DNA of 19,413 nucleotides from a virus. Taxonomy: Duplodnaviria; Heunggongvirae; Uroviricota; Caudoviricetes. Numbering within the stretch: position 1 is the stretch's first letter; each line of letters opens with the position of its first letter. The stretch covers positions 1 through 19,413 of IMG/VR virus record IMGVR_UViG_2703718769_000016; one strand, 5' to 3'. This document shows positions 1 through 15,687 of this stretch, one piece after another. The position numbers and the translations under genes were made by a program. The notes under the pieces were generated by a model that did not search any database, was not told the DNA's origin, and worked only from the letters and a program-made list of their open reading frames with translations.

Positions 1-1287
1 TCATCGTCTCGCTCTGTGGGGCATGTATGGGACACTTTCAGTTAACTCCTTATTGAGCAGTTCTATCTGCCCGATATTGTTATCTTTCATCCATGCTCCG
101 TAAACATTGAAAACCATTTGGGCGTTTGCATGTCCCATCTGGTTTGCGATAAAGCTTGGATTAGCTCCCGCCGATAATGCCCAGCAGGCATAAGTATGCC
201 TGGACTGATAGGCTTTCCTGTGCCGTAGTCCCGCCCGTCTCAATGCCGATGCCCATGAGTCTCTGATGGAGTCTGCTTTGTAGTGGTGGCCTGCCTGCTG
301 GCATTTTTTCACCAGTTGCGGATTAAAAACAAATGTGCATTCATGTCTTACGGTGCGTCCGAACTCCCGAAGTTTGACGTCAATTTGATATTGAGTACCA
401 AATCTTGTCATTTCAGCCTGACTTTTCAGGGTATCAACGGCTGGTTGAACAAGATGAATAACACGATCTGTTCCCGCTTCGGTTTTTGGTAGAGTGAACT
501 CACCGAGTTTTGTATAATTACGACGGATAGTCATTGTTTTAGCTTTTAAATCAATATCCTCCCAGGCAAGAGATATCAGCTCACCATGACGAATGCCTGT
601 GTATACTGCTAAAGACCACAGGTTTTTTGTTTGTTGATGGTGGCAAGCATCAATAAAACGAATGAATTCGTCATGTGTGAGCGGATCTGGTTCTGTTCTT
701 GATCTTTTTAATGGTGTCAGACCGTTAAACGGGTTTGATTCTGTGTATCCGTTGTCAGCTGCAAATTGAAACATACCTGCAATTGTCGTCATGTAGTAAT
801 TAACTGTAACTACAGATCGCCCTTTGACAGGAGTTGTCTTGCCGTTCGAGAGATTGTGATACCCGGTCAATAAATCTTTCCTGATAAAGAGTAAATCTTC
901 TTTTGTTACAGATGAAGCCAGTCGATTTTCCCCTATACGAGGGAGCATGTTTCTCACCACAGATTGATACCGATTGAGCGCGTTACCACCTATCTCGATT
1001 TTCTTCAGATCCAGCCATTTTTCGGCAAGTGCCTTAATGGTTATCTCCCTTTTCCCCAGACCGAAGTGTTTCAGATTTGGAGACTCAGGGAACTGCGCAG
1101 CGTAGTCGAAATTCCCCATTCTGATTGCAAAACAAACTGAAGTCCTGAGTTCGCCTGCAATCTTCCGGTTTTTGGCTGTGTCAGGAATACCGAGGTTTTC
1201 TCTGACACGTTTGCCGTTATAGTGAAACCATATGCGGAGTGAGCCGCCATGGTTTTCAACGCCTGTTGGGTATGATGTGTTACTCAT
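1..1287 (-). CDS. int: Phage tyrosine integrase (lambda Int family site-specific recombinase)
   Basis: 428-aa ORF; C-terminal catalytic-type residues (R...HxxR...Y pattern, e.g. RHTYACW, GHANAQMVFNVYGAW); N-terminal arm-binding-like domain; SD GGGAGG upstream of ATG at 1287; sits at the prophage edge next to an excisionase-like gene. Confidence 0.9.
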   Translation of the reverse strand: MSNTSYPTGVENHGGSLRIWFHYNGKRVRENLGIPDTAKNRKIAGELRTSVCFAIRMGNFDYAAQFPESPNLKHFGLGKREITIKALAEKWLDLKKIEIGGNALNRYQSVVRNMLPRIGENRLASSVTKEDLLFIRKDLLTGYHNLSNGKTTPVKGRSVVTVNYYMTTIAGMFQFAADNGYTESNPFNGLTPLKRSRTEPDPLTHDEFIRFIDACHHQQTKNLWSLAVYTGIRHGELISLAWEDIDLKAKTMTIRRNYTKLGEFTLPKTEAGTDRVIHLVQPAVDTLKSQAEMTRFGTQYQIDVKLREFGRTVRHECTFVFNPQLVKKCQQAGHHYKADSIRDSWASALRRAGLRHRKAYQSRHTYACWALSAGANPSFIANQMGHANAQMVFNVYGAWMKDNNIGQIELLNKELTESVPYMPHRARR

Positions 1288-1320
1288 TAAACCTCCCAGA
1301 CGTCCAGGAGCATTAACAGG

Positions 1321-1575
1321 TTAACCGGAACTTGCATTTTTGGCACCTGGTTGTTTCTGGTTTTTTATCCACCGCATAATTGCATCTATGTTGTACAGGC
1401 ATTCACTGTTTGGTTTTGGCTCTCCATCCACAGAGAAGTGGATATATTCCCTTCCTAACATCCATGATGTTCTACGTGCTCGCTCGATAGTGCCTGATTT
1501 TAATCCTGTTGCAGCAATTAAGATGCTTTCAGCGCACCATTCACTGGGTGTTATCTGATAGATAATTTGTTGCAT
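1321..1575 (-). CDS. Putative excisionase / DNA-binding protein (Xis-like)
   Basis: 84-aa ORF immediately upstream of int on the same strand; small basic protein with wHTH-like segment (ITPSEW...SGTIERARR); ORF track starts at a TTG (1590), ATG at 1575 more likely. Functional call is mostly positional. Confidence 0.55.
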   Translation of the reverse strand: MQQIIYQITPSEWCAESILIAATGLKSGTIERARRTSWMLGREYIHFSVDGEPKPNSECLYNIDAIMRWIKNQKQPGAKNASSG

Positions 1576-1632
1576 AGAATTGCCTTGCAACCGCCGCCAC
1601 TATAGCTGGTGGACGGCGATCAGGGTTGAACA

Positions 1633-4116
1633 TTAAAAATCAGCTTGACTCGGGATCAGTTTTTGCCAGATTGCTGACACGTATTTTGCCTGGTAACGCG
1701 CATCGTGCAGGGCGTTATGGCGTTCACCTTCGAATGGAATAGTCGTTCTGGCATCGAAATCTATCACCAGTCCCAGAGCAACCATCGTTCGTACATCACG
1801 ATCGTTGTTGTAGCGCCACGGACAGGGGATCCCCTGTCGTTCATATGAACGGCGTAAAATTGCGTTGTCGAAGTTGGCTCCATTTCCCCACACCTGAACA
1901 AAAAATTCACCGGAGTTTTCGGCGATAAACTCCCTGAACTGCAACAGCGCGTCATCCAACGGGATTTCATTGGTAAGAATGGCGGATTGTGCTTCGCGTG
2001 ACTGTTTCAGCCACCACTTAATGGTGTCCCGATCGATGACTCCGCCTGCGGTTTCCAGATCGATAGTTTTGCTGAATTCTGGTCCCATCTCTCCGGTTAC
2101 CGGATCAAAAAACTTACCGGCTATAGCGTTGACTGGCGCATCAGGATTTTTTCCCATTGTTTCAAGGTCAATCATCAGATGGTGCCACAACCTGCTGGTG
2201 GATGTGACTTCATTATGACCGTTCACCTTAATTAAGGGATTTGCTGTCTCGCCAGTTTCATTATCGCTATCGTGATGCTGATCACCGTCAGCATTCTCCT
2301 TGCACGGATGTTCAGGGCTTTCCTGTTTCTCCGGATTTTTTTCCTGATATTCATCCAGGTTTTCTTCATTAAAGGTGTCCTGATACGTTGCGTCGCCCAT
2401 CACCGCGCCACAGTCAGGGCAGTTACCCCCACCAGTCTGGCCGCAGGAATCGCAGGCTTTTTCGGTTTCCGGTTGTGCTTCTGGCTCGTTTTGTAACGCA
2501 TTTGGGCTGTTTTGTTCCGCTTTCTGGCCGTTCTGTTCCGTTTCTTGCTGGTTCTGGTTCACAGAATCGCGGGTTTCAATCCCCTTAACCCATTTCGGAT
2601 CATTTTGGTCGCTAATCCATTCAACAAACTCTCCGCGAGAGGCAGCCAGTACTTTGTCTGCATCGACAGGATTTTTGGGCAGAATGTTTTTCCGTGCCTC
2701 GTGGAGTTCGGCCCGTAACTTCTCGTACTTCGTATCTATCTGTGACTGAGCATCCAGCGGCTGCGTGTCCTGATGATGTTCAGTTGTGTCCGGTTCCACT
2801 GTTTCAGCCGTTGCCTGCTCATCTGCCATTGCGTCAGATGGTTGAGGTTTTTCTTCATCATCCTTTTTTCCTTCTTCTGTTACACGCTGTGGCATCGGGG
2901 CAGAGGAGCGACCGCAGGCAATGGCCACAATCATCGGGTCGGGGGTAGCGTGGTCTGTTTCAGTCAGTACCCTGTTCAGATATTCAGTGACGTGCGCGGG
3001 GATGACCTCGATACCAATTGGTGCTTCTTTCACGGACGCAACCACGATGGCGCGGGAATAATCCAGCCCACCAGGCATGGCGATGAATTTGTCGCGGAAA
3101 ACAGAAAATGGCGGTTTATTTTCAGCGATAATTTCCTCAATGCGTTTCGCGTGTGCCGGATGAAGGTTATAAATGTCCACGTCCATTGAACGAGCCAGTA
3201 CACCTGTGGCCACATCGCGCTCCAGTGACGTCAGATCGTGGACGAAACCTTCGCCGCGATCGGTAAGAATTCCACCGCCAGCATTAGCACCTGATGGGGT
3301 GCGATTGATTTCAGATACATAATTTCCCTTCGCCCACTCTTTTGTCAGTAATCCCTGATCCAGATAATCAGTTTTCATCCAGATGGATATGAACTTGTCG
3401 AATTCTGCCGGGCTGATACGACGGGTTGCTGCGTGAGTGAATGCTCTGGATACCGACTCCGCCAGTCTGCTCAGATGGTGGTTTGTCAGCTTATCCAGTT
3501 CAGGATGAGAGCGTACAGCTGTGAGGAGGCTCTGGAGGTTACTGTCCTCCATATCCATTTCCATGCGGATCACTGTATTGCGTTGTTCCGGTGTTGCGTG
3601 GTGCCTGTATTTTCCGCCTTCTTCCTTGCCGAAAAAGTAGAGATGCAGGAAACGATGAGTCAGACTGAGAGTGGCGACGGGAATTTCACATTCATGGCAG
3701 TCATCGTTACTGTCCTGGGATTTATTTTTCTCTGCGTTCTCTGGCTGAGCACCGCTTTGTTCATCGTTGTCATTGCTGGCTGTTACAGCAGCTTCGCCGT
3801 TGATGTTGTCATTGAAGGGTATAGCCATCATGGTGATACCATCTTCCCCGCCTTTTTCATAGCGGTTGCAGAATTCAGTATCAAACACGCCTTCCGGTGG
3901 AAGGTCATTCACGACGGGGAAATTTACGCGAACGGGTTTTTTGAAATCATCCTCGTCGTAGCCTGCATCGTCCATGGCTGCAATGCAGCGGGAAACTGCG
4001 ACAGAAAGTTTTCTGGCATCAGCCCAGAAAAAACCGCCTTTGATGCCAAGGCGTTTTCTGACTTTATCGTTTTTTGCTTCGCAGTGTAGTGCAAAAGTCT
4101 GTTTATCAGCGCTCAT
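1633..4116 (-). CDS. Prophage exonuclease, 827 aa, with C-terminal DnaQ-like DEDDh 3'-5' exonuclease domain, internal zinc ribbon and acidic low-complexity linkers
   Basis: C-terminus has motifs DLETMG (Exo I), [11 protein letters not shown] (Exo II), [10 protein letters not shown] (Exo III, DEDDh); [16 protein letters not shown] zinc-ribbon-like motif; long D/E/Q/N-rich segments; occupies the recombination-module position between xis and kil. Confidence 0.75.
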
Positions 4117-4223
4117 TGTATTTAAACCTCTGGCTGGATTAGAATTAGCGGCCCTTTGTCTGATTTCTCCGAATACGGTGACGCAGGGAGAAATCCGGTA
4201 GCCTGCGCTGCCGGATTTTTATT

Positions 4224-4610
4224 TCAGTGGAAGGTTGCCTGGTTTGCTGTTTTGTGAGTTGTTTTTCCCTTTTCGTGCTGGCATTCAGGGCAGTCGCACT
4301 CAGAATTTTCTCTTGCAAACTCAAGAGCCTGCGCCAGTGTATGGATTTGTTGTGCTCCAATGTTGCTTCTGACGACTTCACATGCAGCATGAATATATGG
4401 GCTTGGTGCTTTGCCATTTAACCCACATGAAACCAAACGACTGTCTTTATATTCGTTATTTCCAACTTCTGTAAGCACTGAAAAAGAAAATACAAAGTCG
4501 ATTTTGTATTCTTTGCATATTTTACTGATGCGTTCTGCAATTTCTTTGAGTTCATTTATTGCATCAGGACTGGTTTCGGAAAATATTTCATTTTGCTCAA
4601 GTTCTTTCAT
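4224..4610 (-). CDS. Hypothetical protein (AT-rich accessory gene in the early-left operon)
   Basis: 128-aa ORF, markedly AT-rich (K/E/I/N-rich), C-terminal CDCPEC motif; same strand and spacing as the neighbouring early genes. Confidence 0.5.
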   Translation of the reverse strand: MKELEQNEIFSETSPDAINELKEIAERISKICKEYKIDFVFSFSVLTEVGNNEYKDSRLVSCGLNGKAPSPYIHAACEVVRSNIGAQQIHTLAQALEFARENSECDCPECQHEKGKTTHKTANQATFH

Positions 4611-4684
4611 TTTTCAATTTCCGTTATTGATAACTAATGTAAATTACTGTTTGGTGCATATATTCGAGAGTATTTTATTACTCA

Positions 4685-4906
4685 TTACCATGATTCAGCT
4701 TTTACCGGCAAACCATCACGTCCCAGGAAAACTTTAATCATGCAGTCGGTAATGCATGTTTTTGTCGTGAAGTTACGAATATAGAGTTTTCTCTTTTCAA
4801 TATTGTTTGCTGAAGCGATATATGTCCGACCTTCATGAAGAACATAATCGCCAGGCGTCACGCACTGACGTGGTATTTCATCAGTTCCGAAGTGATGAGC
4901 AATCAT
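4685..4906 (-). CDS. kilR: KilR-like host-killing / cell-division inhibitor protein (73 aa)
   Basis: 73-aa product [35 protein letters not shown]... recognised from memory as Rac prophage KilR-like; SD GGAGAT 6 nt upstream of ATG at 4906; ORF track's longer start (4924) overlaps the SD. Confidence 0.55.
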
Positions 4907-5486
4907 AATTATCTCCATTTTCACAAATGAACTTTGTTGATGCAGTGCCTGGTGCCTCTAGGTGACGTTAACCAGTTAACAATTAACGCCGGAATACATA
5001 AGAGGATACTTACGCCAGTAAAAGACCGCTTTACTGATTTAACTGTTCCGCGTGCGCTTAGCCGCATTCACCGCATCACAAAATTCACTTTAAAAAGGGC
5101 GGCAGAGCAGTCACGGAGTAAAACTGATACCGCCAAACGTCACCAGAAAATTGATAACAGAGGGCGTTGCAGCGGGGTTGTCACTTAAGCGTATGGTCAA
5201 CCTTACAACCCGGTGTCCTCAACGGGGAAGAAATAACCCCGCCATACTTACCGCCGCGCCATTTCGCGGATTGCCACAACCGGAAGCACACGGTCGAAGA
5301 AATCTAACGACAAGCCTTCTAAGGAAAAGACGCCTTCGCCGTGTGCTTTCGTGTTGTGCCCTGACTTTTCAGGGAAATATCCTTTCAGTAAACTGTCAGT
5401 GCCGGATGCTCACCCGTGTCCGGTGCACGTTCTCCCCCTCACCAGTGGATAACTCCAAAACTACTGACAACCCCAGGAGGGTGAAT

Positions 5487-5741
5487 ATGGCAAATATTTA
5501 TAGTCCTGACGAATATTTCAAAATAACTAATCAAAACATCAAAAATATTGTTGCCACTCAACAACTCTTTGGTAAATTACTTGGAGTAATTGCTGCCCGC
5601 ACAGGTTTGACTAATGAACTAAAGGAGATAATTGAATCCAGTGCTGCGACAGAAGAATCGATGTCTGAGCATGTTGAGTATTCAAAGCAGTTTATTCTCA
5701 ACTCAATGTCTTTGGTTCGCATAATTAAAGACCATTCTTAA
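5487..5741 (+). CDS. Hypothetical 84-aa protein, opposite strand to the early-left operon (sieB-position moron)
   Basis: Strong SD (CCAGGAGGG) 5-7 nt upstream of ATG at 5487; AT-rich coding sequence; predicted helical soluble protein; the long upstream extension to 5151 looks non-coding (R/K-rich, no SD). Confidence 0.5.
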   Translation: MANIYSPDEYFKITNQNIKNIVATQQLFGKLLGVIAARTGLTNELKEIIESSAATEESMSEHVEYSKQFILNSMSLVRIIKDHS

Positions 5742-5940
5742 CGCTTAAGAACACTTCGTTTATGAAGCATCCACTCGCATCTGGTGATGTTGTATTTATC
5801 GTAGTTAAATCGCTTTTCTTAATAGCGCGTTTAGCAATCCAGATGCGGGCCTCAGTACCTGCATTTGGTTCCACCTGCTGGAGGCGCTTTGCATCTTCCA
5901 GAAGCAGGGCGATAACGTGTTTTAATTCTGCCTCGTTCAT
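5725..5940 (-). CDS. Hypothetical small protein (71 aa), early-left operon
   Basis: ATG at 5940 lies 1 nt after the stop of the upstream 51-aa ORF (GGTGAATAAAATG), i.e. translationally coupled; ORF track begins it at an upstream GTG (5949). Confidence 0.4.
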   Translation of the reverse strand: MNEAELKHVIALLLEDAKRLQQVEPNAGTEARIWIAKRAIKKSDLTTINTTSPDASGCFINEVFLSVKNGL

Positions 5941-5941
5941 T

Positions 5942-6097
5942 TTATTCACCTGAGTTTCTTTCCAGCCAGCGACGCGCGCCAGCTTCGGTTTTAAACGTTT
6001 TGCTTCTGGTATACGTCATCGCGGTGAACGTACCGTCCTGGTTTGGGAACACGCCGAAAACCAGAGATTCATTGTTGCCAAGATTGAGCATATCCAT
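5942..6097 (-). CDS. Small 51-aa protein, YdaF-like (first gene of the leftward operon)
   Basis: Not in the ORF track (under 60 aa). MDMLNLGNNESLVFGVFPNQDGTFTAMTYTRSKTFKTEAGARRWLERNSGE; SD GAGG 6 nt upstream of ATG at 6097; length and position match Rac ydaF from memory. Confidence 0.4.
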   Translation of the reverse strand: MDMLNLGNNESLVFGVFPNQDGTFTAMTYTRSKTFKTEAGARRWLERNSGE

Positions 6098-6264
6098 GTT
6101 GACCTCATTTACCCTTAACGCCGGGTAGCGGAACTAAAAACCTGCTGCGCTGTTATACAAAGTGTTCCCGCCGTCATGTTCATACGCCTCGGGCTGGCTA
6201 CTTAACCCCTGACCACTGCCGGGTAACTCGAAGTATTGCCCTGCATTCTGTGAAGCGGGGTGGG

Positions 6265-6320
6265 TTGTAATGAATATAAGAATATTTAGTTTTGCCGTCA
6301 AGTTGAATATAAATATTTTT
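6265..6320. promoter_or_regulatory. OL-like operator/promoter region (repeated TGAATATAA sites)
   Basis: TGAATATAAG at 6271-6280 and TTGAATATAAAT at 6303-6314; the same 12-mer recurs at 7031-7042 on the other side of the repressor gene. Confidence 0.35.
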
Positions 6321-6346
6321 AAGATAAAAGGCCGGCAAAGCCGACC
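6318..6346 (-). terminator. Rho-independent terminator downstream of the repressor gene
   Basis: Minus-strand hairpin GGTCGGC-TTT-GCCGGCC (one G-U pair) followed by TTTTATCTT. Confidence 0.5.
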
Positions 6347-6370
6347 TCTGATTACAGGGAAAAGCGGGAG

Positions 6371-7015
6371 CTAGAGGCTGAACTGAACACCTTTTGCTAC
6401 AGCAACGATGTTACATTCCGGTGTAAGTAAGGATGATTGATAGCGTGGGTTAAGGGGGGCTAAGTACACGAGCTTTCCATCAATAACTAATTTTTTTATA
6501 GTCATGGATGGTTCGTTTGTGAGTGGATCTGGGACTATTACTGCGACGATGCTACCATTTTTATATTTTTCGCCAGGCCTCATGATCACTGTGGCTCCAA
6601 CTGGAATGCTTGGGGATCCTGATGGATTGTGCATAGTATCATCAGGCATTGAAACGGCAAAATCTCCCTCCTTGACATCAAAGAATGTGGTGATCCTGTC
6701 GACATTTCCCATAGTTTTCTCTCCTTTTAATATTAGGAAAGAAATCGCTTCTCCCCAAGAAAGGTATGGGATTTGGGTACCTGGATTTTTCTGCACAAGG
6801 GATGATTCAGGTGATGATACTCCATACAGGAGATAGGACTCAGTAGTGCCTAGTGCTAGGGCTAATTTACTAAGAGCTTTGCTACCTGGTTCGTTTAGAT
6901 CTTTCTCCCAGTATCCTATTGTTACCCCAGTTACGCCAGAAAGCTTGCCAAGTTCAACTTGGGTCAGACCTTTGTCTTTTCTGAGTTTCTTAAGCCTAAT
7001 GCCAAGGCTTTCCAT
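6371..7015 (-). CDS. CI-like prophage repressor (N-terminal HTH_XRE, C-terminal S24 LexA-like peptidase domain)
   Basis: N-terminal LTQVELGKLSGVTGVTIGYWEKD helix-turn-helix; C-terminal domain with S24-type fold features; SD GGGAGA upstream of ATG at 7015; divergent from a Cro-like gene. Confidence 0.85.
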   Translation of the reverse strand: MESLGIRLKKLRKDKGLTQVELGKLSGVTGVTIGYWEKDLNEPGSKALSKLALALGTTESYLLYGVSSPESSLVQKNPGTQIPYLSWGEAISFLILKGEKTMGNVDRITTFFDVKEGDFAVSMPDDTMHNPSGSPSIPVGATVIMRPGEKYKNGSIVAVIVPDPLTNEPSMTIKKLVIDGKLVYLAPLNPRYQSSLLTPECNIVAVAKGVQFSL

Positions 7016-7024
7016 TATTTTCTC

Positions 7025-7114
7025 CCGCGAATTGAATATAAATTATTTTAGATTGTATTGACCTAAAAAAAATTACCCTTTAATCTAAAAATACTTAGTT
7101 TTTAAGGGGGCGAA
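7025..7114. promoter_or_regulatory. OR-like operator region with divergent promoters (pR-like for the cro-like gene, pRM-like for the repressor)
   Basis: TTGAATATAAAT at 7031-7042 (identical to the 6303-6314 site); TTGACC at 7057-7062 then 17 nt then TAATCT; SD AAGGGGG before ATG 7115. Confidence 0.4.
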
Positions 7115-7342
7115 ATGCGAGTTGATGAACTTGTCCAGTTTTTTGGTTCTGTCCAAAGAGTCGCTGATTTTTATGGGGTAACCCGAGAAGCTATATACAT
7201 GTGGCGTAAGCGTCCCGGCGAAATAGTTCCCAAGGGGAGGGCTGCTGAAGCAGTTGCATACTCCAAGGGAAAATTATCGTTGAACCCAGAACTTTACAAA
7301 AAGAAGGATAACACCTCGAACGAAAGGAAAAATGATTCATGA
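7115..7342 (+). CDS. Cro-like HTH regulator (YdaS family)
   Basis: 75-aa protein with HTH (FGSVQRVADFYGVTREAIYMWRKR); divergently transcribed from the CI-like repressor; stop overlaps the next gene's ATG (ATGA). Confidence 0.7.
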   Translation: MRVDELVQFFGSVQRVADFYGVTREAIYMWRKRPGEIVPKGRAAEAVAYSKGKLSLNPELYKKKDNTSNERKNDS

Positions 7343-7776
7343 AAATCAAACATGAGCACATCCGCATGGCGATGAATGCGTGGCTGCTTTATCCGAGGGT
7401 AGGGCGCAAAAAAATCGCTGATGATATAGCGACAGCATATTTTGAGCTTGAAATGACTTATCCACCAATGCATGACACCTCTACGACAGAGGGTATTGGA
7501 TTGAACATACAAAATATTTTTCGCTGGCTTGAAAAGGATACGCCTGATGCTGTTGAAAAAATTCAGGCACTAATTCCGGCTATCCTGACTGTTCTTCCGC
7601 GTGAACTGCGTTATCACCTCAGTATTTTTGACACTGTTGAGCGCCGTGCATTACTGGCGGCGCAGGAAGCGTTAAGTACGGCAATTGATGCACATGATGA
7701 TGCAGTCCAGGCCGTTTACCGGAAAGCGTATTTCAGCGACGGCGGGTCATCCGGCGAGTCTGTTGTGGTGCATTGA
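7339..7776 (+). CDS. YdaT-like (CII-analogue) early regulatory protein
   Basis: 145-aa ORF translationally coupled to the cro-like gene; family assignment by position and recalled similarity only. Confidence 0.5.
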   Translation: MKIKHEHIRMAMNAWLLYPRVGRKKIADDIATAYFELEMTYPPMHDTSTTEGIGLNIQNIFRWLEKDTPDAVEKIQALIPAILTVLPRELRYHLSIFDTVERRALLAAQEALSTAIDAHDDAVQAVYRKAYFSDGGSSGESVVVH

Positions 7777-7862
7777 TATTTATGCCAGACCCCTGCTGAT
7801 TCTGTTGATTGGGGAATCACAGATTATCACCAGAGGATGGTTCGTCACAAGGTGAGGCAATT

Positions 7863-8873
7863 ATGGCCGCATTACCATACATGCAACTTTACATAGCTGA
7901 TTACCTGGCGGACACCATGCATTTGTCCGCAGAGGAGCACGGTGCGTATTTGTTGCTGATGTTCAATTACTGGCAAACAGGGAAGCCAATACCCAAAAAC
8001 AGACTGGCAAAAATCGCCCGTCTGACTAACGAGCGATGGGCTGATGTTGAACCATCCTTGCGGGAGTTTTTTTGCGATAACGGCGACGAATGGGTGCATC
8101 TTCGGGTTGAGGAAGATCTGGTATCAGTCAGGGAAAAATTAACCAAAAAATCAGCCGCCGGAAAAGCATCTGTTCAAGCCAGAAGAAGCAGAAAGGAAGC
8201 ATATGTTCAAACAAAACAAGAGAGAGATTTAACAGGTGTTCAAACAAATGTTGGTGTTGTGTTTGAACATGACGCAAACACAAAAGCAACTAATAAAGAT
8301 ACAGATCTAAAAGAATTAAACCCCACACATAACGCGCGCATGCGCGAGAGTGCTCCAACCGGTGAGTCGAATGGTGCGTCGTTGCAGACAGCCGAACCTG
8401 AATACCTGGACGGCCTGAGCGAACCGATCGGGAAATTTTCGATGACCACTGTCTGGCAGCCGTCGCCGGATTTTCGACAACGGGCAGCAGTGTGGGGTAT
8501 GGCTCTGCCTGAGCCGGAATTTACACCTGCTGAGCTTGCTGCATTCCGGGATTACTGGATGGCGGAGGGGAAGGTTTTCACGCAGGTTCAGTGGGAGCAG
8601 AAATTTGCCCGCCACGTGCAGCACGTCAGGGCACAGGTAAAACCAGTCAGCAAGGGGGTAAGCCATGCAGCATCAGGTGGCACGGCATCACGGGCAGTTC
8701 AGAAAATCCGGGCAGCACGAGAACAGTGGGAACGTGAAAACGGATTTATCAGCAACGGAAACGGCCTGGAAGCTGTGGGAACTTATGGGGGAGGTTTATT
8801 CAAACCGCTGGACTCAGAAGAACGGGGCCGCACCTTCGAAGCTCTGGATTGCCCAGATTGGCGCGATGACTGA
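7863..8873 (+). CDS. Replication initiation protein, DUF1376 (YdaU-like) N-domain with DnaT-like C-terminal region
   Basis: SD AAGGTGAGG then ATG at 7863; N-terminus MAALPYMQLYIADYLADTMHLSAEEHGAYLLLMFNYW typical of DUF1376; central low-complexity linker whose DNA carries iteron-like repeats. Confidence 0.7.
   Translation: MAALPYMQLYIADYLADTMHLSAEEHGAYLLLMFNYWQTGKPIPKNRLAKIARLTNERWADVEPSLREFFCDNGDEWVHLRVEEDLVSVREKLTKKSAAGKASVQARRSRKEAYVQTKQERDLTGVQTNVGVVFEHDANTKATNKDTDLKELNPTHNARMRESAPTGESNGASLQTAEPEYLDGLSEPIGKFSMTTVWQPSPDFRQRAAVWGMALPEPEFTPAELAAFRDYWMAEGKVFTQVQWEQKFARHVQHVRAQVKPVSKGVSHAASGGTASRAVQKIRAAREQWERENGFISNGNGLEAVGTYGGGLFKPLDSEERGRTFEALDCPDWRDD
8170..8275. repeat. Iteron-like repeats (TGTTCAAAC core), candidate replication origin inside the initiator gene
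   Basis: tgttcaagc at 8172, tgttcaaacaaa at 8204 and 8238 (direct, 32-34 bp spacing), inverted copy tgtttgaaca at 8262; flanked by an A-rich stretch. Confidence 0.35.
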
Positions 8874-9327
8874 ACAGCAAATCCGGCTGGTCTGCCGTCA
8901 GTGCATGGACCGCTGCCGGGCGGGTGAAACGTGGCCCCCGGACCTGGCTGAGTTTGTTGCGCTGATTTCGGAGAGTGGGGCAAATCCATTTGGTCTTACG
9001 GTGGATGCCGTGATGGAGGAGTACCGTCGCTGGCGCAATGAATCCTGGCGGTACGACGGGAGTGATAAATACCCGTGGCCACAGCCTGTGCTGTACCACA
9101 TTTGCCTCGAGATGCGTTCAAAGGGGATTGAGCGCCAGATGACCGAAGGGGAGTTAAAACGGCTTGTGGAAAGGCAGCTGACGAAATGGGCAAAGCATGT
9201 TGGTAATGGCCTCAGTGTTCCGCCAGTCCGGCGACAACTGGCAGCACCCAAACGCCCGCCAGGGCCAACGCCAATTGAATTGCTGAAACAGGAATATGAG
9301 CGCCGGAAGGCGGCCGGTTTTGTCTGA
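8665..9327 (+). CDS. Lambda P-like replication protein (helicase loader family); start uncertain
   Basis: C-terminal two-thirds aligns by eye to lambda P ([14 protein letters not shown] / PFLPSPGQFVAWC; YPWPQP / YPWKSN). Strong SD AAGGGGG before ATG 8665 but that start overlaps the upstream gene by 208 nt; alternatives are ATG 8785 and ATG 8866 (ATGACTGA overlap with the upstream stop). Confidence 0.6.
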
Positions 9328-9361
9328 GTTGAGAAGTAATTTTTACCGGGAGGAAAATTTA

Positions 9362-10075
9362 ATGGAAACCGTATTTGACGCACTGAAAGCACTGAAAAAA
9401 GCCTCGTCGCACGAGATTGCAGCCCGTCTTGAAATCAGCCGTGACGATGCTGTCAACGAGCTGTGGAAGCTGAAACGCCGTGGTGAAGCTGATAACAAGG
9501 GGTCGATGTGGTGGCTGACGAGTGAGGCAACTGAAATGGCCACAAAAACCACTGCGGAGATGCTGATTAACGCAATTGAACAGCATGGTCCTCAGTCGGC
9601 TGACGAACTGGCGTTAATGTTCGGGATTACCTCCCGCCGGGCGAATTCAACGCTGGCAATGGCAATAAGCAAAGGTCGTCTGATTCGAGTAAATCAGAAC
9701 GGTAAATTTCGTTACTGCCTGCCGGGCGATAATTTACCAGCAGAGCCGAAAGCTGCATCGGTAACGGAAACTGCTGGTAAAGCCTTTCCTCAGCCAGCAG
9801 GTGTTGCGTTACCAGTCCGGGAAGCGGAAACACAGGAAGAAATTAAAACTGAAAGTGTGGCGGTCACAGTGCAGTCACAGCCGTCGTTCACCAGAAAGCA
9901 TCCGGATAGTCTGATTTTACCATCGCTGCATGTGGCTAACCGCGAACTGCGCCGGGCAAAAGGTCAGGTTCAGAAGTGGGAGCGAGTCTGTGCTGCGCTG
10001 CGTGAGCTGAACAAGCACCAGGATATTGTTCGACAGATTACTGATTCATCCTGTTGTGTTGCATCAGACAAGTGA
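9362..10075 (+). CDS. Hypothetical protein with two winged-helix-like segments
   Basis: SD GGGAGGAAAA before ATG 9362; 237 aa; wHTH-like stretches ([23 protein letters not shown] and [29 protein letters not shown]). Confidence 0.6.
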
Positions 10076-10090
10076 TTGCAGGGGACGCTG

Positions 10091-10594
10091 ATGGCAAGAG
10101 TATTTACACCAGAAGAGCGGGAAAAAATTAAGGGGCAGGTTGTTGAACTCGTACGCCAGAGCGGTCGCGAGACGTTACGGCAACTGGAAGCTAAAACAGG
10201 TGCAACAAGATATCTGGTGATCGTTCTCGCCAGAGAGCTGGTTGCCAGTGGTGATGTATACAACTCTGGCTACGGGTTATTTCCGTCTGAACAGGCTCGT
10301 AAAGACTGGCAAAACGCCCGCAAAAAACTTTCAAGGGAAAAGGCGAAGAAACCGGCTGTGGTTGATCCGGACCTTATCTGGTCATTACCAGACGGAGAAA
10401 TACGCCGCTACGACAGGCGCCTGAACATAATCTGTCGCGAGTGCCGGAATAGTGAAGTTATGCAGCTAGTGCTGGCGTTTTATCAGGGGGTGGGGTCAGG
10501 AGGTGGTGCTGTGAGTGAAATTAGCTATCAGGCTTCAATTTCCGCTGGCATTCGCATCAAAGGAGAGGAGCATGGAAATAAAACCAGAAGATGA
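10091..10594 (+). CDS. Hypothetical prophage protein
   Basis: 167-aa ORF; ATG 10091 follows GGGGA; ORF track start at 10076 is a TTG; same strand and tight spacing with neighbours. Confidence 0.5.
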   Translation: MARVFTPEEREKIKGQVVELVRQSGRETLRQLEAKTGATRYLVIVLARELVASGDVYNSGYGLFPSEQARKDWQNARKKLSREKAKKPAVVDPDLIWSLPDGEIRRYDRRLNIICRECRNSEVMQLVLAFYQGVGSGGGAVSEISYQASISAGIRIKGEEHGNKTRR

Positions 10595-10928
10595 GTTAAG
10601 TAATATTGTTTTATTTCCGGTAAAAGAGGATGACCCACGTAATCAGGTTAATTTTCTTTATGAGCCATCGGAAAGACCATATTGTCATCACGCCTCTGTC
10701 CGGGTTGACGAAAAAGAGCGTCAGGTCCGCTGTAAAATCTGCGGTGCAGTTGTGGAGCCATTTGACTGGATGCCCTCTGTGGCGAAAAGAGAAACCAGAC
10801 TGGCAGATGATGTAAGGCTCTTGCGCCAGGAGGAACGGGAAAGGCGGAGAAATGTAGAAAAGCTAATTCAGATTGAGCGTAACGCGAAAGCGCGGATACG
10901 CAGGGCGGCAAAATCAAGAACTGAATAA
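10572..10928 (+). CDS. Hypothetical protein with zinc-finger-like motif (C/H-x...CxxC)
   Basis: SD AAAGGAGAGGAG before ATG 10572; PYCHHASVRVDEKERQVRCKICGAV motif; basic coiled-coil-like C-terminus. Confidence 0.5.
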   Translation: MEIKPEDELSNIVLFPVKEDDPRNQVNFLYEPSERPYCHHASVRVDEKERQVRCKICGAVVEPFDWMPSVAKRETRLADDVRLLRQEERERRRNVEKLIQIERNAKARIRRAAKSRTE

Positions 10929-11021
10929 TTAAATTTAGCACTGTTAAAAATTTAATCCTTAACCGGAGGGATTTCTGCACCCTCAGAACATCAGGAGGCC
11001 GTTCGAAATGGCGGTAGTGAA

Positions 11022-11204
11022 ATGCGAAAATTCAAAATAATTATTGAAACGGGAATAGCTGGTGGAGATTTTGAGGATGTATTCGAAGTAGATGATGACG
11101 CAACACCTGATGAAATTCATGACGAAGCAAAAGAAATTTTCTTTAACTACTGCAATTACTCATACCACGAAATAAAAGATGAAGAGGAAGGACAAAATGG
11201 CTGA
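11022..11204 (+). CDS. Small acidic hypothetical protein (60 aa)
   Basis: ORF with acidic composition; stop overlaps the next ATG (ATGGCTGA). Confidence 0.4.
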   Translation: MRKFKIIIETGIAGGDFEDVFEVDDDATPDEIHDEAKEIFFNYCNYSYHEIKDEEEGQNG

Positions 11205-11373
11205 TTTTGGTTCAACTAAATATAACGCCAGTTTTGAAGAATGGCATGAACTGTTAATGGATTATGCAGAGTTACGCGGTGGAAGTGCCGCTGATGCTGA
11301 AGCATGGCGTGATGATTATGAAGCAGGGAAAACTCCGGTCGAAGCATATTGTGATGAGTGGGGCGATGAATGA
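11197..11373 (+). CDS. Small acidic hypothetical protein (58 aa)
   Basis: SD GAGGAAGGA before ATG 11197; coupled to neighbours at both ends. Confidence 0.45.
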   Translation: MADFGSTKYNASFEEWHELLMDYAELRGGSAADAEAWRDDYEAGKTPVEAYCDEWGDE

Positions 11374-11729
11374 GCGAGATTAATTATCAGGAAGGGCATG
11401 AAAAGGCAGGGCAGGCAAAACCAGTGGCATGGCGATATCGCTACGTGAAAAAAGGCGTTACAGACTTTCAGGGGAAGCAGTGGGCTGGTGACTGGAAATA
11501 TGTCCAGACAAAAGAAGATTGTAACGACAGACCGAACTATGAAATTCAGGCGTTATTCACGGCACCGCCAGCCCCGGTGACATCAGAAGGACTAGTTAAA
11601 GCCGTGTGCTTTTATGAACAGGTAAAGCGTGAGAATCCACCAGTCGAAACAGGTGCATGGAAAGATGCTGTTGACTGGGTACTCAAAGAGGCTTGCCAGG
11701 CTGTAAGCATTAGCAACAAAGGGGGGTGA
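11370..11729 (+). CDS. Hypothetical prophage protein (119 aa)
   Basis: ATG overlaps the upstream stop (ATGA); plausible globular composition. Confidence 0.55.
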   Translation: MSEINYQEGHEKAGQAKPVAWRYRYVKKGVTDFQGKQWAGDWKYVQTKEDCNDRPNYEIQALFTAPPAPVTSEGLVKAVCFYEQVKRENPPVETGAWKDAVDWVLKEACQAVSISNKGG

Positions 11730-11732
11730 GTA

Positions 11733-11909
11733 ATGCGTGTGGCATGTATCAGTTTGTTACCGTACCCGACTCGTTTTTTGGCTTCTGCGCTAATTGCAAA
11801 GCCGCGTGTCCTGATGGATGACAGCATCATCCCGACACCAAAGCGCCGCCATACCGGTATTGCAGCGGCACGACGAGCAGCAAAGAAACGCAGGAGAGCA
11901 AAACGATGA
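11733..11909 (+). CDS. Small basic protein (58 aa), not in the ORF track
   Basis: Strong SD AGGGGGGTGAG before ATG 11733; C-terminal KRRHTGIAAARRAAKKRRRAKR; stop overlaps the next ATG. Confidence 0.3.
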   Translation: MRVACISLLPYPTRFLASALIAKPRVLMDDSIIPTPKRRHTGIAAARRAAKKRRRAKR

Positions 11910-12100
11910 AAAACCGTAAAGCAAAAATTCTGTTAGCTCGCAGAAACGGTGTTGGTGTCTGGCGGTGGGTGAGGATTAGTAACAGACGGGTGAGGTTGAC
12001 GGGGTGTTGCGGTGTTATGGGGCACAGTTGTTGCAAAAAGCCCAGCGCGGCGCAAAACCGCTGGAAAAACCACTGTTATCTGCGCACTAAAGGAGAGTGA
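11906..12100 (+). CDS. Questionable small ORF (64 aa) over a G/T-rich repeat region
   Basis: SD AGGAGAG before ATG 11906 and exact stop-start abutment with neighbours, but W/R/C-rich translation and GGGTGAGG repeats suggest it may be non-coding. Confidence 0.2.
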   Translation: MKNRKAKILLARRNGVGVWRWVRISNRRVRLTGCCGVMGHSCCKKPSAAQNRWKNHCYLRTKGE

Positions 12101-12101
12101 G

Positions 12102-12617
12102 ATGGCGTTAACACACCGCGAACTCTGTCAGATTGCGTACAAGTTCCTTAAGCGCAACGGGTTCAAGGTTTGCTTTCATGACCGCTTTATAGCTGTAACC
12201 AGTACCGGAGAACAGCCAGATGCTATGGGATTCAGAAATTCAGCATCATGCCTGATAGAGGCGAAGTGTTCTCGTGCTGACTTGTTGGCAGATAGAAAAA
12301 AGCGTTTCCGTAAAAATCCCTCTCTTGGCATGGGCGACTGGAGATTCTTTATTAGTGAGCCGGGAATTATTTCAATTGAGGATTTACCACCTGGCTGGGG
12401 ATTACTTCACGTTGTTAACGGAAGAGTACGGAAAGTACATGGGTGGCCCAAGGGTAATTGCTGTTGGGGTAATCCTGACGATAAGCCATTTACTGGAAAT
12501 AAGCAGGTTGAATGCGATTACATGTTGTCTGCATTAAGGCGCATGGAGTTGAGAGGGCACCTTAATGAAATATATGACGGTGTAATTGTTAATAAGAAAG
12601 AAGGAAACGCGGCATGA
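12102..12617 (+). CDS. Putative PD-(D/E)XK-fold nuclease-like protein (MmcB-like)
   Basis: SD AAAGGAGAG before ATG 12102; motif pattern D...(IEAK) consistent with a PD-(D/E)XK core (PDAMGF...[12 protein letters not shown]); 171 aa. Confidence 0.45.
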
Positions 12618-12958
12618 CGACTTTTACCAGAGAGCAGTTAATAGCTCACGCAGAGGAGACTATTGAAGCACAGAGACTGTGCATACCGGGCACAATCGAC
12701 AATGACATCATCCGCACATATAAGATGGATATTGCTGTTCTGGAAATCGCACTGGCATCGCTGGCAGCAGAGCCAGCCGGTAAATTGCATGAATACAAAC
12801 CAGTGGGACATCAGCGTCTGGTCGACGAGTTAACCATGCTGGTAAAGCAGTTAACCTGGCAACTGAGGAAAACGAAGCCGGACTGTAAATTGCCGGGTAA
12901 GGCGATGGACTACCTGAAGCGAAACGGACTGATAAGTGCAGAGGATGTTTTACGATGA
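12614..12958 (+). CDS. Hypothetical prophage protein (114 aa)
   Basis: ATG overlaps the upstream stop (ATGA); helical composition. Confidence 0.55.
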
Positions 12959-13038
12959 CCTGGCATGGGGCATTCACAACGGTAGGGATTGCAATGGCGG
13001 TGGTGCTGATTGTGTATTCGATTTGTCGCTGGGGGTAA
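12955..13038 (+). CDS. Putative 27-aa hydrophobic peptide ([27 protein letters not shown])
   Basis: ATG overlaps the stop of the preceding gene (ATGA); single predicted transmembrane helix; too short for the ORF track. Confidence 0.3.
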
Positions 13039-13149
13039 AAACGATTTGCGGGGAAAGGATAGTTAAGTAGAATTGCTGCGGGTGCTTGAGGCTATCTGTC
13101 TCAGGCATGAACACCAAAAGGCAGATAGAGAAAAGCCCCAGTTAACATT

Positions 13150-13215
13150 ACGCGTCCGGCAAGACGCTTAACATTAATCTGAGGCCATATCTATGCTCTA
13201 CACACGTAGGTTAGC
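13150..13215 (-). ncRNA. Predicted Sok-like antisense RNA of the hok locus (approximate position)
   Basis: Inferred from hok-family organisation; candidate minus-strand promoter (TTGCCT then 17 nt then TAACCT) would place a transcript antisense to the upstream in-frame ATG and SD at 13181-13195. Confidence 0.25.
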
Positions 13216-13249
13216 CTCTTACGTGCCGAAAGGCAAGGAGAAGCAGGCT

Positions 13250-13405
13250 ATGAAGCAGCAAAAGGCGATGCTAATCGCCCTGATCGTCATCTGTTTAACC
13301 GTCATTGTGACGGCACTGGTAACGAGGAAAGACCTCTGCGAGGTACGAATCCGAACCGGCCAGACGGAGGTCGCTGTCTTCACAGTCTACGAACCTGAGG
13401 AGTAA
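13250..13405 (+). CDS. hok: Hok/Gef-family type I toxin (51 aa membrane peptide)
   Basis: MKQQKAMLIALIVICLTVIVTALVTRKDLCEVRIRTGQTEVAVFTVYEPEE: hydrophobic TM helix plus conserved RKxLCE...EVA motif of the Hok family; SD AAGGAG; an in-frame upstream ATG at 13193 with its own SD (mok-like leader); structured 3' region with fold-back hairpin and terminator. Confidence 0.8.
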   Translation: MKQQKAMLIALIVICLTVIVTALVTRKDLCEVRIRTGQTEVAVFTVYEPEE

Positions 13406-13475
13406 GAGACCAGGCGGGGGAGAAATCTCCCGCCACCTCTGATGTGTCAGGCATCCTCAACGCACCCGCACTTAA

Positions 13476-13495
13476 CCCGCTTCGGCGGGTTTTTG
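13476..13495 (+). terminator. Rho-independent terminator of the hok transcript
   Basis: CCCGC-TTCG-GCGGG followed by TTTTT; preceded by hairpin GGCGGGGGAGA-AAT-CTCCCGCC at about 13414-13434. Confidence 0.6.
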
Positions 13496-13506
13496 CATTA
13501 GTCTGG

Positions 13507-13545
13507 TTGACAAAAACAGGAAAATGCGAAAATATAAGGTTTACG
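13507..13545 (+). promoter_or_regulatory. Candidate sigma70 promoter for the two-gene insert
   Basis: Perfect -35 TTGACA at 13507-13512; A/T-rich -10 candidates (AAATAT / TATAAG) 17-20 nt downstream; lies between the hok terminator and the 13571 ATG. Confidence 0.35.
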
Positions 13546-13570
13546 AATTCTAAAAAAAGCGAAACTTGAA

Positions 13571-14221
13571 ATGAATGAAAATCAGTTAGCTCCTTGTTGG
13601 GAATTTCAACCTTATCTTGCTGAAAGCAATGTTCGCCAGTTGTTGGCGGAGATCGCTAACGTACTTGAGCAGTTGTACTATCATAAGCACGTATTAGACA
13701 GCAACTGGTCTGAAGGTGTAAGGGCTTATGATTGGGTCAGAAACCATCTTATTCAAAATGAAGGCGCAATTCCTGGTCTTAAGATGATTTCCAAGGGGTT
13801 GGACTATGTAGTTGCTTTAAATAAAGTTCCGCTACAATTTACCAAAGATTGCATTAATAACCCCAAAAAGAAACATCGCCTGCGTCGAAATAAAGTAGAG
13901 CATGAGCAGCTTTCATTGTTTGGTGATGTTGAGGCTGAGCAAGATATTACATGGCGAGTCATAGCGGAGCCATTTTTATCCGAAGAGGGAGATGGTGAAT
14001 TAGAGTCCACACTGCCTCGTTGGGAGGTGGCTCTTGTTGGGTTTAATATCTATGGTGCTCAGATTAGTATGGTTTCTCATCAATCTACAGCATCAATGCC
14101 ACTTATGCCCCTTGACGGTAACACACTCCCTGGCGAAGCGGAGATTAATAAGGTGTCTCTTCGTCGGCGTACGAAGGATAAAATTTTGGATGTGAGCAGT
14201 AATGGAACATCAGGTGAATAA
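13571..14221 (+). CDS. Hypothetical 216-aa protein, candidate toxin/effector partner of the HTH-M78 peptidase
   Basis: Long ORF in a low-GC insert; no motif recognised by eye; 3' end overlaps the start of the downstream HTH/peptidase gene by 20 nt (operon). Confidence 0.6.
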   Translation: MNENQLAPCWEFQPYLAESNVRQLLAEIANVLEQLYYHKHVLDSNWSEGVRAYDWVRNHLIQNEGAIPGLKMISKGLDYVVALNKVPLQFTKDCINNPKKKHRLRRNKVEHEQLSLFGDVEAEQDITWRVIAEPFLSEEGDGELESTLPRWEVALVGFNIYGAQISMVSHQSTASMPLMPLDGNTLPGEAEINKVSLRRRTKDKILDVSSNGTSGE

Positions 14222-15305
14222 CTTCACTGAGTATCGAGGCGATAAGCTCAAACTAGCAAGAATGGCTATTGGGCTTTCATGTGAAGAGTTGGCCGAAAAA
14301 ATTGGCAAAACAAAACAATTCGTTAGCAAATTGGAGAAGGGATTTAGGCCATCAGAGCAATGCCTGGAGTTAATAGCCTCAGCTCTTATGATTAAGCCCG
14401 ATTTTCTATTTACTGAGCGAAAATATGCTCTGGAAAGCGATGTTTGCCATTTTCGGAGTAAGAAGTCCAGGACTCAAACGCTGACTAATAGTGTCTTGGC
14501 TAGGGCTGAGATTCTTAATATTATAATTTCTGCTGTTGAAGGTGAAATCGAATTCCCTGATGTCAACATACCAGAGCACCCAGGAACTGAATTACTTACC
14601 CCGAATGATATTGAGCGAGTGGCAGAAGATTGTCGCCGTGCATGGAATCTAGGTCTTGGCCCTATATCATCAATGGTGAAATTGGCGGAGAGTTTGGGGG
14701 TAATCGTTGCGCATGTTACGGGAGTCGATGATCGTGTTGATGCATTCACTGTTCACAATAACAGGCCTGTTATTATCAGGAACAATGTAAAAAAAAGCAT
14801 ATGTAGATTTCGCTCTGATTTAGGTCATGAGTTAGGGCATTTAGTAATGCATGAGGGCATAACTACTGGTGATAAACTTACGGAATCACAAGCTGATCAC
14901 TTTTCTAGCGCCTTATTGGTTCCTAGGCTATCTTTCATTAAAGAATTTCCACGAATACGAGGTAAGCAATTCGATTGGAGTGCTCTGGTTGAATTTAAGC
15001 TTAGATGGAAAATTAGCCTTAAAATGTGTATTTATCGAGCCAGTGCATTAGGACTATTGACCCAGGAACAGGCAAGAACTGGCTATATGCATCTTAATTC
15101 TAGAGGGTACACGAGAGTTGAACCAGGTGATGAACTTTTGCGCCACGAAGAACCAAGTATGCTGTCCGAAGCGATTGACATGCTGGATGATGCAACTTGG
15201 TTAAGAATTCTTATGAAAACTGGCTTGAGTCAAGATTTAATTCGTGAGTTGTTCTCCATCAATCGACCTATTACAAATCCAAGAAATATTTTTCAGATTG
15301 TTTGA
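14202..15305 (+). CDS. Xre-family HTH fused to ImmA/IrrE-type (M78, COG2856) zinc metallopeptidase
   Basis: N-terminal HTH (LKLARMAIGLSCEELAEKIGKTKQFVSKLEKG); HEXXH zinc-binding motif HELGHLVMHE about 140 residues later; 367 aa, typical for HTH-COG2856 fusions. Confidence 0.85.
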   Translation: MEHQVNNFTEYRGDKLKLARMAIGLSCEELAEKIGKTKQFVSKLEKGFRPSEQCLELIASALMIKPDFLFTERKYALESDVCHFRSKKSRTQTLTNSVLARAEILNIIISAVEGEIEFPDVNIPEHPGTELLTPNDIERVAEDCRRAWNLGLGPISSMVKLAESLGVIVAHVTGVDDRVDAFTVHNNRPVIIRNNVKKSICRFRSDLGHELGHLVMHEGITTGDKLTESQADHFSSALLVPRLSFIKEFPRIRGKQFDWSALVEFKLRWKISLKMCIYRASALGLLTQEQARTGYMHLNSRGYTRVEPGDELLRHEEPSMLSEAIDMLDDATWLRILMKTGLSQDLIRELFSINRPITNPRNIFQIV

Positions 15306-15310
15306 GCATA

Positions 15311-15335
15311 CCCGCTACGGCGGGTTTTGTTTTTT
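15311..15335 (+). terminator. Rho-independent terminator after the HTH-M78 gene
   Basis: CCCGC-TAC-GGCGGG followed by TTTTGTTTTTT, 6 nt after the stop; near-identical core to the hok terminator. Confidence 0.65.
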
Positions 15336-15407
15336 CCGGGCTTTTTGGTTTACAATCCGCACGCCAGCCTGAACAACTGGCACCTGCTGCGCCAGCAGAG
15401 AAAAACG

Positions 15408-15686
15408 ATGGCGCACAATACCAAATCACACAATTCTGATAATTCAGCTGTCTTTGCCAGCAGGCACGGGCGGCGTTCCCGCACATTCAAATCTGACTGG
15501 TTCCAGCATGACCCATGCACAGAAGAACAGGCCGAATGGTTAATTCAGTGCTACCGCAGGCGCGGATACGAGTTTCAGAAAGACCTCAGCCTCGACCGAC
15601 TGCACTGGATAATCTCTGTGAGGCTCCCTTACTCCGAGCGCCCACCGCGTCCATCCCGCACATTCCAGCAACGTATCTGGAGGTAA
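15408..15686 (+). CDS. Hypothetical protein (Rem-like position upstream of the YdfU-like gene)
   Basis: 92-aa ORF from the first ATG with any SD-like context (15408); stop TAA overlaps the SD/GTG start of the next gene; start uncertain. Confidence 0.4.
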   Translation: MAHNTKSHNSDNSAVFASRHGRRSRTFKSDWFQHDPCTEEQAEWLIQCYRRRGYEFQKDLSLDRLHWIISVRLPYSERPPRPSRTFQQRIWR

Positions 15687-15687
15687 C

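Follow-up and report, generated by a model that had tools for sequence, protein, structure and literature searches.

Introduction

The RecET pair of the Rac prophage is a workhorse of recombineering. RecE (exonuclease VIII of Escherichia coli K-12) carries its 5′-3′ nuclease, which is of the PD-(D/E)XK type, in residues 564–866, and no function is known for its N-terminal part (PMC11611040); this part, of 560–600 residues, has long been left without one. Here, we analyzed a gene that keeps the RecE N-terminus while its catalytic end has been exchanged for a nuclease of predicted opposite polarity and the annealase has been dropped. The gene is located at positions 1,633–4,116 (minus strand) of a DNA of 19,413 nucleotides (IMG/VR record IMGVR_UViG_2703718769_000016, positions 1 to 19,413), and the whole of this stretch is called the window below. 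The window covers the left arm and the early region of an E. coli lambdoid prophage that resembles Rac and is inserted beside yecE. The gene had been noted in a preliminary description made from the sequence alone.

The second system to be compared is DexA (exonuclease A) of phage T4. DexA is a DNA exonuclease that takes part in the scavenging of host DNA and in intron homing, which is a form of double-strand-break repair (PMC12153337). Its E. coli homologue EcD (HAK9828821.1; HREX) is reported, when carried on a plasmid, to protect cells from T4 and to digest T4 genomic DNA while sparing unmodified DNA (PMC12153337). In the HREX defence form, the DexA tetramerisation residues S87 and D90 are lost, and Ala occupies position 78 of EcD; DexA W152 and D169 were proposed to recognise 5-hydroxymethylcytosine (5hmC) (PMC12153337).

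Our preferred reading, which we consider reasonably probable, is that the gene, part of the early operon, encodes a single-polypeptide 3′-5′ exonuclease for DNA ends whose polarity is the reverse of that of RecE and which the RecE N-terminal region (RecE-N) delivers; it would not be an exonuclease/annealase recombinase.

The C-terminal DEDDh exonuclease domain

The open reading frame (ORF) is uninterrupted, starts with ATG, and encodes 827 amino acids (aa). The Pfam family PF16473 (Rv2179c-like) covered residues 645–817 (E = 3.9e-61; 206.3 bits against a cutoff of 27) and was matched at profile positions 1–177 of 177. Three DnaQ-like motifs singled out in the preliminary description, DLETMG (aa 650–655, nt 2152–2169), FDNAIL (aa 749–754, nt 1855–1872), and HNALHD (aa 800–805, nt 1702–1719), are all present inside this match and supply a complete catalytic pentad. 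D650/E652/D750/H800/D805 aligned with D7/E9/D119/H186/D191 of DexA, whose residue roles were taken from PMC12153337. The domain search thus assigned the C-terminus to the DEDDh Rv2179c/DexA family and not to the RecE/YqaJ PD-(D/E)XK nucleases, as had been anticipated from the motifs. A 3′-5′ polarity of the domain would follow from its family membership.

A sequence search for solved structures matched only 8KEL and 8KEN, a 227-aa 'Exodeoxyribonuclease' (E = 1.9e-5). These are the DexA of PMC12153337, and 8KEN differs from 8KEL at the S87A/D90A positions. The DexA alignment was made with 'DNA exonuclease A' of the T4-like phage FelixPlatter, to which residues 4–174 of 8KEL are identical. The domain and DexA share the DEDDh fold family, as judged by sequence, and the pentad, at 32% overall identity, with several DexA loops missing from the domain. 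In this alignment, DexA D90 is retained as D722 and S87 corresponds to P719; D169 corresponds to D786 and W152 to N770, with W767 three residues off. Most of the diverged fused relatives have Gly in the D786 column. Neither DexA nor EcD is part of a larger protein, whereas the domain of the window sits behind 640 aa of RecE-N.

The pentad was invariant in 20 close relatives and was retained in 12 of 14 diverged fused representatives (49–87% identical). The dN/dS of the domain was 0.10 in three pairwise comparisons (dS 0.28–0.69), and the linkers evolved faster (dN/dS 0.3–0.4). The domain is under purifying selection. One diverged fused relative of 752 aa (P0157) has Lys at the catalytic Glu and Ala at the second DEDDh Asp; its nuclease has possibly been inactivated yet kept for another role.

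An exoribonuclease that acts on RNA 3′ ends (phage or host transcripts, or the genomes of RNA phages) was also considered. The domain matches PF16473 over its full length, and the namesake of that family, Mycobacterium tuberculosis Rv2179c, is described as an exoribonuclease; Rv2179c differs in that it belongs to a cellular organism and has neither RecE-N nor a phage context. PF16473 is described as a 3′-5′ exoribonuclease domain, and many RefSeq and nr entries are so named. Defence against RNA phages by DEDDh exonucleases with auxiliary domains has been reported in a 2026 preprint, but this preprint sets its TONDO proteins apart, by sequence, from the other DEDDh domains associated with defence (PMC13344964). 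The only structure matched by sequence was, however, that of a DNA exonuclease, and RecE-N, to which the domain is joined, belongs to an enzyme of DNA recombination. For these two reasons DNA is the likelier substrate of the exonuclease, and we regard activity on RNA as improbable.

The N-terminal region of RecE and the breakpoint

BLASTP against K-12 RecE aligned residues 51–629 of the ORF with RecE 43–591 at 58% identity (579 aa), with ~90% identity over residues 255–629, and detected no similarity in the ORF to RecE residues 592–866, the C-terminal nuclease. By this homology, the N-terminal ~630 residues are RecE's own N-terminal region, including its linkers and Cys4 knuckle. About 500 of these residues had been called unexplained in the preliminary description, a view that the alignment overturns. 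The Pfam family PF06630 (Exonuc_VIII) matched residues 54–195 (E = 1.1e-12). The NCBIfam model exoVIII (PRK09709 equivalog) matched only at model positions 1–602 of 877, with positions 603–877 unmatched, and its score of 843.6 was below the cutoff of 1269.

GenBank phage records and nr records name such proteins exodeoxyribonuclease VIII, and the N-terminal 629 residues are RecE-like, as expected of a genuine RecE-type 5′-3′ exonuclease for double-stranded DNA. The sequence nevertheless refutes this identity. The RecE N-terminal region is present but the PD-(D/E)XK nuclease domain is absent, the NCBIfam score is below cutoff, the C-terminus is of the DEDDh type, and recT is missing. A true exonuclease VIII can thus be practically dismissed.

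Nucleotide identity to Rac recE was 76–97% over the part encoding residues 265–622 and about 30–40%, the random level, after approximately residue 628 (nt ~2230). This profile marks a clean recombination breakpoint, or domain swap, at approximately residue 628. Past the breakpoint, Rac has the RecE nuclease domain, recT, ralR, and rcbA, whereas the window has an 18-residue junction peptide, the DEDDh domain, and xis. Stand-alone homologues of the domain in temperate phages begin exactly at the Met equivalent to M648, suggesting an in-frame fusion of a once independent gene to a truncated recE. In Salmonella phage F1055, a stand-alone version of 185 aa (57% identical to the domain) is encoded directly before xis/int, and PhiR46_1 has one of 199 aa (52% identical). 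The protein encoded upstream of the F1055 exonuclease was checked as a candidate split RecE-N and is not one.

The N-terminal region itself consists of a variable head, a conserved core, and several linkers (Table 1). The head (aa 1–142) showed only about 30–60% nucleotide identity to Rac recE and was near-identical to that of gp06 of Shigella phage 75/02 Stx. Acidic or Q/N-rich stretches poor in hydrophobic residues span about aa 106–135, 406–465, 511–555, and 571–630, and the whole protein contains 144 D + E against 87 K + R. A Cys cluster, C555-x2-C558-x7-C566-x2-C569, is present in K-12 RecE as CNACGQTGGDNCPDCG and in at least 90% of 20 family members. The acidic low-complexity segments and the CxxC...CxxC cysteines reported in the preliminary description are both real, but the match of the cluster to the Pfam double zinc ribbon (DZR) was not significant (E = 0.45).

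The core (aa 143–415) was modelled as an all-alpha structure with a predicted local distance difference test score (pLDDT) of 85.7. The modelled core matched no annealase or nuclease fold, and no structural relative was found. Annealase families gave no Pfam or PHROG match anywhere in the 827-aa protein, so that the N-terminal region does not appear to hide the annealase that is missing from the locus. Across 16 diverse relatives, the most conserved core positions are the polar or charged motifs TDR, DFDIY, DYSRA, and TETDH; such conservation would be expected of a site of binding or catalysis more than of a simple scaffold. A full-length AlphaFold2 model was discarded: its alignment contained 20 sequences, all at least 75% identical, the mean pLDDT was 41.9, and the DEDDh domain was also poor. 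A Foldseek search of this discarded model against the PDB returned nothing (best E = 0.9).

The prophage locus

The first ~8 kb of the window were 99.9–100% identical to NZ_CP045712.1, the best RefSeq match. Identity was 92–95% at 8–10 kb, and past ~10 kb the two sequences were not collinear; the prophage is thus a mosaic that is not covered whole by that record. On the strand that reads leftward from the cI/cro region, the exonuclease ORF comes after kilR and before xis. Its position between kilR and xis/int indicates that it occupies the recE slot of Rac, which is distal in the leftward early operon. The locus therefore resembles Rac in the order kilR, recE, xis, int and in the homologous N-terminal ~600 aa. 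It differs from Rac at the end of the gene, where RecE has its PD-(D/E)XK 5′-3′ nuclease, followed by recT, and the present ORF has a DEDDh domain of predicted opposite polarity. The features are listed in Table 1.

Table 1 Features of the exonuclease gene and its surroundings in the window.
Feature	Position	Strand	Description	Basis
int	1..1287	-	Tyrosine integrase; prophage end, adjoins host yecE	
xisR	1321..1575	-	Excisionase; directly downstream of the exonuclease ORF	
Exonuclease ORF	1633..4116	-	827 aa; RecE N-terminal region and DEDDh exonuclease; RefSeq WP_062873436.1 'exonuclease'	
DEDDh 3′-5′ exonuclease domain (predicted)	1666..2184	-	aa 645–817; PF16473 Rv2179c-like / T4 DexA family	Pfam, DexA alignment
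Junction peptide	2176..2229	-	aa 630–647; no RecE counterpart	
Last acidic linker	2230..2409	-	aa 570–629; common to RecE; Rac recE homology ends at ~aa 628	
Cys4 knuckle	2410..2454	-	aa 555–569; putative zinc-binding site, conserved in RecE	
Linkers	2455..2871	-	aa 416–554; acidic linker, one predicted long helix (aa 457–476), Q/N/E-rich linker; common to RecE	
RecE-N core	2872..3690	-	aa 143–415; conserved, all-alpha, orphan fold; motifs RTxSGAxAGGGNxTDR, DFDIYN, PGxLDYSRA, LTETDH	
N-terminal head	3691..4116	-	aa 1–142; variable; PF06630 match starts here; first acidic/N-rich linker (about aa 100–140)	
128-aa protein	4224..4610	-	Function not assigned; phrog_2016; upstream of the exonuclease ORF; equal position in Shigella phage 75/02 Stx	
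kilR	4685..4906	-	Early-left operon shared with the exonuclease ORF; further small genes beyond	
LexA-family repressor	6371..7015	-	Faces cro, ydaT, and replication genes	

In Rac, recT, ralR, and rcbA sit between recE and xisR. In the window, the gap from the exonuclease stop codon (1633) to xisR is 57 nt, and no ORF between them matches an annealase. Among the remaining window ORFs scanned with PHROG and Pfam, none matched the RecT, Red-beta, Erf, Sak, or Rad52 families. The preliminary description had reported no annealase gene before xis, and these scans agree with it; the adjacent annealase gene of RecET/Red-type two-component recombinases is absent, and none was found among the scanned ORFs of the window.

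Early genes of lambdoid prophages are transcribed from PL after induction, and Rac recET is silent in lysogens. Because of these known operons, we infer that the exonuclease gene would also be transcribed from PL. In the promoter/terminator scan, the 107 nt upstream of the ORF (4117–4223) contained no promoter-like site; the consensus was weak, and the counts for the window were not above those for shuffled sequence.

The similarity to DexA raises the possibility of HREX-type superinfection exclusion, in which a prophage-borne defence gene would degrade the 5hmC-type DNA of incoming T-even phages through its DexA-like domain and spare host DNA. The domain is homologous to DexA, and EcD acts on T4 (PMC12153337). 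D786 aligns with DexA D169, and W767 lies three residues from the W152 column. The primers for EcD (supplement of PMC12153337) indicate that it starts with MIDTET and resembles the stand-alone relatives of the domain in size. The reverse-primer 20-mer gave one chance match in IMG/VR, with no exonuclease ORF, and the forward 17-mer gave 99 chance matches in GTDB genomes, none of them in enterobacteria. The position in the PL operon, where Rac recET is silent in lysogens, and the lack of an upstream promoter-like site argue against this possibility. Furthermore, D722 is retained at DexA D90, the residue whose loss is said to define the defence form (Ala in EcD), and most of the diverged fused relatives carry Gly in place of the D169 equivalent. 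No match to the exonuclease or its neighbors was found with PADLOC (PADLOC-DB 2023), and RecE-N otherwise accompanies recombination proteins. We consider this role unlikely. If the DexA-like domain does attack modified phage DNA, as claimed for EcD, phage exclusion would be a function of a prophage gene that is very common in pathogenic E. coli.

Distribution and annotation of the gene

DNA of the DEDDh domain was detected in 3760 of 5426 complete E. coli genomes, with up to seven copies per genome. Many of these copies are a 5′-truncated pseudogene in a Qin-like remnant. In E. coli NCTC9066, such a cryptic remnant (7001–8065) contains int, xis, and only the 3′ 1065 nt of the exonuclease gene, annotated as a pseudogene, and keeps linkers and the entire DEDDh domain. 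This arrangement likely accounts for many of the matched E. coli genomes. Whole-gene megablast reached 80% coverage in only 167 genomes, but the divergent head makes this search unfit for counting intact copies.

Intact copies of ~800–850 aa with both Pfam domains filled the top 120 protein clusters (90%) of the homology search, one of which occurred on 856 contigs. They were found in O157:H7 prophages and in phage-collection records, among them vB_EcoS-689R5, Tritos, and Citrobacter phage Chris1 (36% identity), and partial matches were found in mEp460, Evi, and HannyBb. The recE slot and the absence of an annealase recur in the four related loci (O157, vB_EcoS-689R5, Tritos, and Chris1), which have different int/xis modules.

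These data bear on whether the ORF is a non-functional chimera, left by illegitimate recombination as prophages decay. Mosaicism is high among lambdoid prophages, the present one is mosaic too when compared with its best match, and many E. coli copies are truncated pseudogenes. However, full-length ORFs occur in many 90% clusters and are intact in isolated temperate phages, and the architecture persists down to the level of divergence seen in Citrobacter. Together with the low dN/dS of the nuclease domain, the invariant catalytic residues of the close relatives, and the conserved slot, this makes a decaying chimera very improbable.

RefSeq, Pfam, and PHROGs already annotate this very common architecture. 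RefSeq uses the names 'exonuclease', '3′-5′ exonuclease', and '3′-5′ exoribonuclease domain-containing protein'. The GenBank name exodeoxyribonuclease VIII on many such records is wrong, and thousands of database records with that name are flagged here as misnamed. Majorek et al. (2014) list a DEDD cluster of 'Exodeoxyribonuclease VIII enzymes'. This was the only mention of the fused protein obtained by a literature search (PF16473/Rv2179c, PF06630/DEDDh), which found no experimental or functional study of it.

Partners of the RecE N-terminal region

An exhaustive HMMER search with residues 1–630 found only 219 clusters (50% identity) among 1.84 billion representatives, indicating that RecE-N is a narrow family, mostly of enterobacterial phages. 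We sorted 82 representatives of at least 450 aa by local phmmer, Pfam, and clustering of their C-terminal tails. Nineteen of the 82 ended in the RecE nuclease and 14 in the DEDDh domain, nine carried a tail designated B and 26 a tail designated A, and two carried RecT; the rest were short-tailed or partial.

Tail B contains the motif ...KKSLTDAxKKALSxLGFxADI..., at which Pfam Rad52_Rad22 gave a sub-threshold match (E = 0.015). It is 38–48% identical to stand-alone phage proteins, one of which is annotated as a RAD52-like annealing protein and adjoins a Gam-like gene. Tail B is thus probably a Rad52-like single-strand annealing domain. Its carriers include P0127, P0142, P0184, P0194, P0198, P0217, P0254, and gp07 of Pectobacterium phage ZF40 (3968–6133). 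PHROGs (phrog_7838 and phrog_2489) and GenBank name these RecE-N/tail B proteins 'exonuclease', which is likely a systematic misannotation, probably caused by annotation transfer. ZF40 gp07, itself annotated 'exonuclease', has a RecE-N-type N-terminus and occupies the equal slot between cI and xis/int; it differs from the protein of the window in that its C-terminus is a probable Rad52-like annealase, not a nuclease, and a Mu Gam-like gene follows it. Tail A (phrog_26058) is ~200–270 aa long, carries the motif ...VVSCTGHLIP...SPxFSDxEIHxVATTILDxWSD... (e.g., P0190, P0195, P0214, and P0243), and had no Pfam or PDB sequence match; it makes a fifth kind of partner for RecE-N.

RecE-N also occurs without a nuclease. 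Shigella phage 75/02 Stx gp06 (682 aa) is 75% identical to residues 1–617 of the ORF, and kil and the 128-aa gene lie upstream in both phages; gp06 differs in having a short tail without a nuclease domain. Directly behind it comes a complete Red-like module of gam-like, RecT-like, and exonuclease genes (gp06–gp03, 3501–7310), whereas the window has only the fused DEDDh domain. The occurrence of nuclease-less gp06 beside Red-like genes shows that the RecE N-terminal region can be a separate protein. RecE-N is an autonomous unit that accompanies recombination functions, either fused to them or adjacent.

As a wider reading, possible but doubtful at present, RecE-N would be an orphan-fold module through which exchangeable effectors for DNA ends dock onto a single target of the phage or the host. 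The effector would be a 5′-3′ nuclease, a 3′-5′ nuclease, or a Rad52-like or RecT annealase, or would be absent where Red-like genes lie alongside. The DEDDh form would then provide end processing of reversed polarity in one protein, independent of an annealase. Natural module swaps of this kind could make the function of the RecE N-terminus testable, for example, in the boosting of linear-linear recombination by full-length RecE. The gene of the window is ordinary in frequency and already catalogued, and its main value is as a member of this natural set of swaps.

Proposed function

A fused 180-aa DEDDh domain of the DexA/Rv2179c type has replaced the RecE nuclease together with recT, ralR, and rcbA. 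In the favored reading, the product is a single-polypeptide 3′-5′ DNA-end exonuclease. The protein would be made from PL after induction or infection and not in the repressed lysogen. Judging from its family, it would be a metal (Mg)-dependent 3′-5′ exonuclease, acting most likely on DNA 3′ ends. RecE-N would bring the nuclease to the same substrate or partner as in RecE. This delivery role is proposed because RecE-N is found alone beside gam, recT-like, and exonuclease genes and, in other proteins, joined to the RecE nuclease or a probable Rad52-like annealase. Strand pairing, if it takes place, would have to be supplied by the host. The benefit to the phage may lie in recombination or the trimming of replication ends, or else in the destruction of competing DNA.

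Several points weigh against this proposal. Both the polarity and the choice of substrate, DNA or RNA, rest on 32% identity to DexA, and Pfam named PF16473 after an exoribonuclease. The delivery module is deduced from domain co-occurrence, in which the Rad52-like assignment of tail B comes from the sub-threshold match (E = 0.015) and otherwise from 38% identity to one annotated phage protein, and in which both RecT fusions may have arisen by deletion. The grounds for expression from PL only are gene order and a scan with a weak consensus. In addition, a 3′-5′ exonuclease would strip the 3′ tails that recombination uses, and a role in promoting recombination is not obvious.

An insert in the nin region

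Apart from the exonuclease gene, the nin region of the window contains a two-gene insert of low GC content (about 0.42) at 13571–15305 on the plus strand. The first gene encodes a 216-aa protein (phrog_5786) with no Pfam match, and the second encodes a 367-aa protein with HTH_3 and Peptidase_M78 domains (IrrE/ImmA-like). The insert resembles a moron or a regulatory cassette.

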